A stretch of DNA of 64,000 nucleotides from Escherichia phage LHE287. The stretch lies in the sequence record PP761450.1; one strand, written 5' to 3'. The position numbers and the translations under genes were made by a program. The notes under the pieces are model-generated. The model saw only the letters and a program-made list of their open reading frames with translations, did not search any database and was not told the DNA's origin. The stretch's first letter is position 1. The number at the start of each line of letters is the position of its first letter. This document shows positions 230-29,691 of this stretch, piece after piece.

Positions 230-306
230 GGTCCTGTAGCTCAGTCGGTTAGAGCAGTGAACTCATAATTCATTGGTCATTGGTTCAAACCCAATCAGGA
301 TCACCA
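230..306 (+). tRNA. tRNA-Met (anticodon CAT; could be a lysidine-type Ile tRNA)
   Basis: Cloverleaf: acceptor GGTCCTG/CAGGATC, D-arm TAGCTCAGTCGGTTAGAGCA, anticodon stem-loop GTGAA-CTCATAA-TTCAT, T-arm ATTGG-TTCAAAC-CCAAT, 3' ACCA. Confidence 0.8.
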
Positions 307-560: not shown

Positions 561-644
561 GGGGGAGTACCAGAGTGGTCAAATGGGCCTGACTGTAAAT
601 CAGGTGTTTCGGCTTCGGTGGTTCGAATCCATCCTCCCCCACCA
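561..644 (+). tRNA. tRNA-Tyr (anticodon GTA), long variable arm
   Basis: Acceptor GGGGGAG/CTCCCCC, anticodon stem-loop CCTGA-CTGTAAA-TCAGG, long variable arm, T-loop GGTTCGAATCC, 3' ACCA. Confidence 0.8.
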
Positions 645-28626: not shown

Positions 28627-28914
28627 ATGTTCTATCTCCGTTCTGCAGCACCTATAGTATTCATCATTATCCTATTTGATTTCCTGGTTCCTCGCTTTAT
28701 CAAAGAGGAGGTAGCGTTTGGCCTCTATAGTGAGACGGAAGACCCAGAGGTCGATGAATATTATCCAATGTGCGCCCTGAAAGATATCGAGGAAGGGGAA
28801 GATGTTGCAATGGTAGGCACTATGCGTTCTTTCAACCTGTTCGGGATTGCACTCTTTCCGAAACTGGTTGGTGAACTGCGCCCCTACGTTCCTGAAGCCA
28901 CTGTAGATGGTTGA
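28627..28914 (+). CDS. hypothetical protein (95 aa)
   Basis: ATG with GGAGGG RBS. Confidence 0.45.
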   Translation: MFYLRSAAPIVFIIILFDFLVPRFIKEEVAFGLYSETEDPEVDEYYPMCALKDIEEGEDVAMVGTMRSFNLFGIALFPKLVGELRPYVPEATVDG

Positions 28915-28949
28915 TCATAACATAGCTTCTGAGCCCTAAACTTCTGTCT

Positions 28950-29227
28950 ATGGATGATTCCTTGTATTTTCATTGTCCTGGGTGTGATATACTTCACCCA
29001 TATCGCATTAAGGGCGAAACCCAAGGTCCGATGTGGTCGTGGAACAACAATGTTATTGAGCCTACGTTCACACCGAGCCTGCTGGTGAATGTATCTGATC
29101 CAGCATCATTTGCCATCTGTTCCTGACCGACGGCAAAATACAATTCCTCGGCGACTGTTTCCATGATCTGAAGAACCAGACAGTGGATATGGTCGACATC
29201 TCTGAACCTGAAATTTGGATTGAATAG
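28950..29227 (+). pseudogene. split ORF: two short ORFs in frames 0 and -1 that together encode a Cys/His-rich protein of about 92 aa
   Basis: ORF A 28950..29126 (MDDSLYFHCPGCDILHPY...DPASFAICS*) and overlapping ORF B ending about 29227 (...CHLFLTDGKIQFLGDCFHDLKNQ...EIWIE*), which has no start codon of its own. Confidence 0.3.
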
Positions 29228-29230
29228 ATT

Positions 29231-29641
29231 ATGAAATTACTGGGATATTTTCGTGAACTCCCAACGGGAACTGAAGGCAAGTTGTTCTCACAGGTGAAGG
29301 GGGATGACATCGGTGATACGATGATTCCATTGTACACTCGTGAACTTCCTGTCGAAGGTGCCTGGGAGCGCCGTGTGGTCGCTGCCGCCAACAAATATGG
29401 TGATGTGATCGTCGTTGCCGACCGTCACCACAGCCGATTCATGAACAGCCAGCTCAAGATCCTGAAAGAAGCAGGCGTCATTAAATCCACCCATACCCGC
29501 GAACAGGGATTCATCGACAACCAGGGCAACTTCCTCACTCGTGAAGAGGCGTGCATCGTAGCCCGTGAAGCTGGACAGATCAATCAGGTGCGCCTGAAGA
29601 CAACCCCTTTCCGCGAACTCTTTTCCGAAGACCTCTATTGA
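29231..29641 (+). CDS. hypothetical protein (136 aa)
   Basis: ATG-initiated ORF. Confidence 0.5.
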   Translation: MKLLGYFRELPTGTEGKLFSQVKGDDIGDTMIPLYTRELPVEGAWERRVVAAANKYGDVIVVADRHHSRFMNSQLKILKEAGVIKSTHTREQGFIDNQGNFLTREEACIVAREAGQINQVRLKTTPFRELFSEDLY

Positions 29642-29691
29642 AGAAAAAGGCGGTATTATTACCGCCTCGACCTCTTGTTTGGTAACATCAA

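Follow-up and report, generated by a model that had tools for sequence, protein, structure and literature searches.

A split reading frame in Escherichia phage LHE287 is very probably a decaying pseudogene of the DUF6527/BubE family

The split locus and its surroundings

The window analysed here is a stretch of 64 000 nt from Escherichia phage LHE287 (GenBank accession number PP761450.1), and all positions given are those of the window unless another sequence is named. Its source clade is an AV101/YX22-like group in the Ackermannviridae (Aglimvirinae, Agtrevirus-like). Over 24 kb, exactly nine GenBank records, namely YX22, CECAV_050, A221, ZQ1, RPN242, AV101, PH4, PC3 and fGh-Ecl02, fall within 95-99 % identity to the window, their actual values being 96.7-98.3 %, and YX22 is the closest genome overall (98.3 %). 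Shigella phages MK-13 and ChubbyThor share about 91-92 % identity with the window over 24 kb, and Ag3 is ~92 % identical at the nucleotide level over a 1.1-kb region. We note that the GenBank taxonomy places fGh-Ecl02 and 4HA11 in the Cvivirinae (Kuttervirus). However, over 24 kb fGh-Ecl02 shares 98.0 % identity with the window, which belongs to the Aglimvirinae, and for 4HA11 the identity in the 1.1-kb region is 95.4 %. These two taxonomy records are probably mislabelled.

The gene order is common to all of these phages: topoisomerase II medium subunit, a 95-aa membrane protein, the split locus, an Arn.3/T4_Y16D-like gene, DUF7234, Tk.4 and DexA. The split locus is housed in a 316-nt gap between the end of the membrane-protein gene at 28914 and the start of the Arn.3/T4_Y16D-like gene at 29231. 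The features of the locus and its neighbourhood are listed in Table 1.

The gene downstream of the split locus belongs to the T4 Arn.3/Pfam T4_Y16D (PF26092) family. Its labels in public records are 'C-N hydrolase superfamily', 'tRNA processing enzyme' or hypothetical. Within the clade, its synonymous to nonsynonymous ratio of 30:5 indicates strong purifying selection. Between this gene and the following ORF, the minus strand carries a GC-rich, terminator-like hairpin with a T tail, and the annotated genes around it are all on the plus strand. The count of terminator-like hairpins was not above that in shuffled sequence.

Table 1. Positions of features in and near the split locus, and of frameshifting indels found in the clade
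Feature	Position	Strand	Details
tRNA-Met (CAT)	230..306		Near the start of the window
tRNA-Tyr (GTA)	561..644		Near the start of the window
Degraded Shine-Dalgarno of the ancestral gene	28906..28910	+	GATGG versus GAGGG; inside the last codons of the membrane-protein gene
Remnant of the ancestral start	28917..28925	+	ATA-ACA-TAG for ATG-TCA-CAG; codon 3 is an in-frame amber stop
ORF A	28950..29126	+	58 codons from the internal Met, which is codon 12 of the ancestral gene
Ser codon (S43 of ORF A)	29076..29078	+	Aligned with catalytic Ser92 of Citrobacter BubE
Frameshift site, T3 run	29109..29111	+	T4 in clade relatives; CGT in intact orthologs
C-terminal 38 codons and stop	29111..29227	+	Now in the -1 frame (CHLFLTDGKIQFLGDCFHDLKNQTVDMVDISEPEIWIE, then stop)
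His codon	29114..29116	+	Aligned with catalytic His102 of BubE; -1 frame
Arn.3-like gene	29231..29641		Downstream of the split locus
Terminator-like hairpin	29647..29668	-	GC-rich, with T tail
Indel, +1 nt	near 29029		RPN242, L021
Indel, +2 nt	near 29078		CECAV_050
Indel, -1 nt	29109		Window, PC3, CECAV_050, YX22
Indel, -1 nt	near 29135		ZQ1, L025
Indel, -1 nt	near 29158		AV101

Layout of the two frames

The ATG and TGA (29124-29126) of ORF A and its 58-aa product (MDDSLYFHCPGC...DPASFAICS) were verified as originally predicted. The product carries HCPGC, a putative zinc-ligand motif, and a conserved Pro-Ser motif, and then runs into an out-of-frame FAICS and the stop. No Shine-Dalgarno-like sequence is present in the 20 nt preceding the ATG. 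The -1 frame, in the phase of 28949, opens at 29099, immediately behind a TGA (29096-29098), and ends with a TAG at 29225-29227; its translation is SSIICHLFLTDGKIQFLGDCFHDLKNQTVDMVDISEPEIWIE. This overlapping frame had been described as lacking a start codon, and this was borne out, the only start codons in it being a GTG at 29183 and an ATG at 29189, close to its end. The two frames overlap over 25 nt (29099..29123, TCCAGCATCATTTGCCATCTGTTCCTGA).

ORF A alone matches the Pfam profile PF20137 (DUF6527) with 31.9 bits over profile positions 2-43, where the curated gathering score that serves as the membership threshold is 23.6 bits. When the two frames are joined, the resulting 92-aa sequence scores 44.8 bits (E = 1.2e-11) and covers profile positions 2-62 of 63. 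The Cys/His-rich product of about 92 aa that the original prediction had assembled on paper is thus a single protein and, because the joined sequence is the PF20137 domain, the two frames are halves of one gene and not a chance pair of ORFs. The exact ORF A sequence was absent from a collection of 15 billion proteins, and this exact fragment has therefore never been deposited.

Intact orthologs and the ancestral gene

Outside the clade of the window, the same locus contains intact single ORFs of 103-105 codons. Those examined were from Ag3 (gp016), Gloob (gp13), SKML-39, P46FS4, 4HA11, SNUABM-02 and CAU_YEP3 and, among Kuttervirus, from EP75, pertopsoe and aagejoakim. A tblastn search with Ag3 gp016 found 302 phage records, 261 of them with an uninterrupted match to 80 % or more of the protein, and the ortholog family is also present in Burkholderia, Erwinia, Ralstonia and other phages. 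A comparison with intact orthologs in related phages had been proposed in the original prediction, and it revealed both the single ORF of the relatives and a 1-nt deletion in a T run.

The intact genes begin with ATG-TCA-CAG, 11 codons 5' of the ATG of ORF A and 2 nt past the stop of the membrane-protein gene. Variants of this start are ATG-CCA-CAG in 4HA11 and ATG-TCA-AAA in Kuttervirus. In Ag3, SKML-39 and other intact genomes, a Shine-Dalgarno sequence, GAGGG, lies six nt ahead of the ATG. The 11-residue N-terminal extension (MSQLLSPKLLS or MSKLLTPKLLS) is conserved at the protein level from Aglimvirinae to Kuttervirus despite many synonymous changes, and the extension must for this reason be translated. 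This ancestral start, which is destroyed in the window, had been overlooked previously. The stop codon of the gene itself is also TAG, and no suppressor tRNA for the TAG at 28923 was found in the window, which encodes only tRNA-Met and tRNA-Tyr. The Met that starts ORF A is internal in the intact orthologs and is conserved in all of them. At the position of the frameshift, the intact genes read GCA-TCA-CGT-TGC-CAT (A-S-R-C-H).

The differences are clearest relative to Shigella phage Ag3, where gp016 (YP_003358503.1) occupies the same genomic position and matches the protein sequence of the window's locus apart from the lesions. Ag3 has an uninterrupted ORF of 103 codons preceded by GAGGG and opening with ATG, whereas in the window the start reads ATA-ACA-TAG and the frame is split by a 1-nt deletion. 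The residue before the Cys-His motif is R in Ag3 and F in the window.

Relationship to BubE

PF20137 is now listed in Pfam as BubE. The small BubE protein forms a beta-sandwich, contains a zinc site and a Ser-His dyad, and cleaves ubiquitin-like conjugates in Bub ('6E') operons; the peptidase/deconjugase activity has been demonstrated for Citrobacter BubE only (bioRxiv 10.1101/2024.11.21.623953). The phage proteins were aligned with two BubE sequences from the supplement of that study. S92 of BubE aligned with the invariant serine of the phage Pro-Ser motif and H102 with the histidine of the phage Cys-His motif, and the intact orthologs from Ag3 and EP75 have both residues in the aligned columns. 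In the window, the Ser is in ORF A and the His is encoded in the -1 frame alone, and hence no polypeptide encoded there holds both putative catalytic residues. Unlike BubE, the window's copy is broken between the two.

The N-terminal Cys cluster of the phage proteins also aligns with the zinc ligands of BubE. However, the cluster is HCPGC in the phage proteins (two Cys and one His) and CPCGC in BubE, where the ligands form a C4 site (C57/C59/C61/C99). The fourth Cys directly precedes the His in the phage proteins but is three residues before it in BubE. A highly conserved C-terminal tail with a further Cys and His (LGDCFHDLKNQTVDMVDIPEPEIWIE) is found only in the phage proteins. Bub operons include Ubl, E1 and E2 genes, whereas the phage gene stands alone, with none of these nearby. 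On its sequence, the ancestral gene would be filed under PF20137 and not under the Bub system. Searches of the literature on phage-borne BubE found nothing relevant, a PHROGs search returned families of unknown function only, and no solved structures related by sequence were found.

Lesions across the clade

To the window were added eight of the GenBank genomes and ten independent metagenome/SRA assemblies, which were retrieved via the exact Arn.3-like protein, giving a clade comparison of 19 sequences. The ninth GenBank relative, PH4, is outside this set; its search statistics are the same as those of PC3.

The ancestral start is lost in all 19, with ATA-ACA-TAG or GTA-ACA-TAG replacing ATG-TCA-CAG. 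All 19 also have TTT in place of CGT in the codon preceding the Cys-His motif, which creates a run of four T (TCA-TTT-TGC). In 15 of the 19 this run is retained and the motif is in frame (TCA-TTT-TGC-CAT). The remaining four (the window, YX22, PC3 and CECAV_050) have only three T (TCA-TTT-GCC), as the result of a 1-nt deletion.

Further lesions are scattered among the clade members. Five independent frameshifting indels (Table 1) were found in the 312-nt remnant and none in 1230 nt of flanking genes, an enrichment that is significant when scaled to segregating sites (Fisher p = 0.006), though recombination within the clade could raise or lower the count of independent lesions. The internal Met has been lost by an ATG to ACG change (Met to Thr) in PC3, ZQ1 and L025. 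The 92-codon frame that starts at the internal Met is open in ten of the clade sequences and closed in nine. Residues that are invariant elsewhere have been replaced in individual genomes, namely C81R in YX22, H83R in PC3, L68P in AV101, L70P in fGh-Ecl02 and V93A in A221, and fGh-Ecl02 and A221 retain the open frame despite these changes.

A single-base difference in a homopolymer, with the four-T form in the clade majority, is what would be seen if the missing T were a sequencing or assembly error and the real phage kept a TTTT run, with the 92-codon frame open from the internal Met. However, homopolymer errors on current platforms typically involve longer runs than 3-4 T. The identical three-T run is also present in the independently sequenced YX22, PC3 and CECAV_050, and in PH4 if its search statistics, which equal those of PC3, are a guide. 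Because YX22, the closest relative of the window, shares the three-T run, its presence by descent is the simplest explanation, and we regard an error as very unlikely. Even with TTTT, the conclusion that this is a pseudogene would not change, as the ancestral start would still be missing and the evolution of the remnant still neutral.

Programmed recoding

The original prediction had treated a 1-nt indel or a sequencing error as being as likely as programmed frameshifting. Of this, the indel stands, namely TTTT to TTT, but a pure sequencing error is unlikely and recoding is not an equal option. The layout does resemble the -1 frameshift sites of tailed phages, such as that of the tail assembly chaperone genes G/GT, in having overlapping frames and a longer fused product if these are joined. 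The 25-nt overlap, the complete domain obtained from the joined frames and a possible downstream hairpin (about 29152-29196) would suit programmed -1 ribosomal frameshifting, or transcriptional slippage, at UCA-UUU-G to yield a functional 92-aa DUF6527 protein.

However, in contrast to sites of the G/GT type, the window lacks a slippery heptamer, the two-frame layout is not conserved and the relatives use a single frame. A frame 0 scan covering the whole of ORF A (28950-29126), overlap included, found no X-XXY-YYZ heptamer, in agreement with the original prediction. The predicted fold of 29100-29235 only marginally beats shuffled sequences (z = -1.78; 8 of 200 shuffles equal), and the main hairpin starts ~40 nt past the T run, too distant for a stimulator, for which the spacing is 5-9 nt. 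No Rfam match was found in the frameshift/3' region. Transcriptional slippage requires a much longer run than three T. Within the clade, the two-frame layout is the minority state (4 of 19 sequences), it was not seen in any other phage, and in two of its four carriers it stands beside another disabling lesion (loss of the internal Met in PC3 and the +2 insertion in CECAV_050). The protein is encoded in a single frame in 261 phage records, and ORF A has neither the native start nor a ribosome-binding site. With no heptamer, no well-placed structure, no conservation of the layout and no start or Shine-Dalgarno sequence, programmed frameshifting is not supported. Recoding is already close to refuted, and we consider it extremely unlikely.

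Substitution pattern and selection

The remnant also differs from its neighbours in how it accumulates substitutions. Within the clade, the synonymous to nonsynonymous ratio is 11:36 in the remnant versus 62:30 in four flanking genes (Fisher p = 9e-7). For a nine-sequence set, the ratio in the remnant is 11:31 and the neutral expectation of 22 % synonymous changes is not rejected (binomial p = 0.58). In the same set, codon positions 1, 2 and 3 have changed 11, 16 and 14 times, that is, evenly. The corresponding ratio for intact genes is 29:33 (p = 2e-5 versus neutral), with an excess of third-position changes. The direct comparison of the clade with the intact group is marginal for the whole gene (p = 0.04) and, with too few sites, individually non-significant for the gene halves (p = 0.12-0.15). 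For this reason, the selection argument rests on the comparison with the flanking genes.

The intact protein is most constrained in its C-terminal third, which is the part displaced into the -1 frame in the window. The pN of this third is 0 (Nei-Gojobori; Ag3 and SKML-39 versus RC-2014 and CAU_YEP3) and reaches only 0.04 in comparisons with Kuttervirus. Among eight intact Aglimvirinae genes, the sole replacement in this third is P96S in 4HA11.

These data also bear on whether the clade retains a functional, N-terminally shortened gene that starts at the internal Met (28950), in which case the copy in the window would be a very recent knockout of a live gene. The 92-codon frame is open in 10 of the 19 sequences, gene callers report products of 63-92 aa that match Pfam BubE in several clade members, and no intact ortholog lacks the internal Met. 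However, the ratio of 11:36 is neutral-like and unlike that of the flanking genes, and open copies have replaced C-terminal residues that are otherwise invariant (L70P in fGh-Ecl02 and V93A in A221). There is no Shine-Dalgarno sequence ahead of 28950, and five independent frameshifts as well as losses of the Met have accumulated although divergence within the clade is only about 2-4 %. We therefore give a shortened live gene a very low probability, although a truncated protein might be made from the internal Met in some genomes.

In a sliding window analysis, the ~120 nt from 29110 to 29235, up to the next ATG, showed a mean pairwise divergence of ~1 % among Aglimvirinae of several genera, compared with 5-20 % in the flanks. 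An embedded RNA or promoter under this stretch was considered and rejected, as the low divergence reflects zero nonsynonymous change (pN = 0). Synonymous divergence over the stretch is mildly lower (0.09-0.17 versus 0.22-0.32, at ~23 synonymous sites), and relative to Kuttervirus the synonymous sites are saturated (0.77-0.85). A promoter/terminator scan gave a chance-level result. Constraint at the protein level is enough to explain the low divergence.

Origin of the split frame

We conclude that the split frame is very probably an ordinary pseudogene of a DUF6527/BubE gene, now without its start and in neutral decay in the clade, and not a site of programmed frameshifting. The homology, the lesions and their distribution, and the neutral pattern of substitutions were observed directly; we infer in what order the events took place and that no product is expressed.

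The ancestor would have been a single ORF of 103 codons, a member of the DUF6527/BubE family conserved across the Ackermannviridae. In the common ancestor of the AV101/YX22-like clade, the start was presumably lost by an ATG to ATA change together with a CAG to TAG change creating the amber codon at codon 3, and the replacement of CGT by TTT before the Cys-His motif, which made the TTTT run, would have occurred in the same ancestor. The gene has since probably drifted without selection, with different genomes gaining frameshifts, losing the Met or replacing invariant residues. In the sub-lineage of the window, the TTTT run would have contracted to TTT (29109-29111) in a gene that was already headless. 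This contraction moves the C-terminal third into the -1 frame and hence produces the split ORF. No functional product is expected, because ORF A has no ribosome-binding site and the Cys and His encoded beyond the shift are missing from it.

Such a clade-wide natural loss indicates that a gene conserved in ~260 phage genomes is dispensable in at least one host setting. The intact gene, which is very strongly constrained, also belongs to a family for which ubiquitin-like deconjugating peptidase activity has been demonstrated in bacteria. The match to PF20137, together with the aligned Ser and His and the very strong purifying selection in intact genes, could be read as pointing to a standalone BubE-like Ser/His deconjugase that strips ubiquitin-like modifications made by Bub-type or related conjugation systems of the host, in which case the decay in this clade might mark a host range where such counter-defence is not needed. 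We regard this reading as improbable.

Annotation of the locus

We recommend that the gap be annotated as a DUF6527/BubE-family pseudogene, and not as one or two hypothetical genes or as a recoding site. Public annotation of the sister genomes is inconsistent and shows either nothing here or fragments of 44-65 aa. At the position equivalent to 29040..29042, many clade members have a TCG to ATG change (W-S-W to W-M-W), and the new internal ATG is used by gene callers for fragments of 63-65 aa. These predicted fragments are artefacts of annotating a pseudogene. Intact orthologs (for example, L003, 1817..2128) are labelled 'putative anaerobic dehydrogenase' or 'ammonia monooxygenase'. These names are inherited misnomers that derive from similarity notes and are not evidence of function.

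Irregularities at this locus were also seen in other phages. EspM4VN (L015, at about 700), which is outside the clade, has its own 1-nt deletion in the DUF6527 gene. Dickeya phage JA15 (GenBank accession number KY942056) matches residues 1-67 only of the DUF6527 protein. In 4HA11 (L011, 326..612), the upstream membrane-protein gene is annotated as two ORFs.
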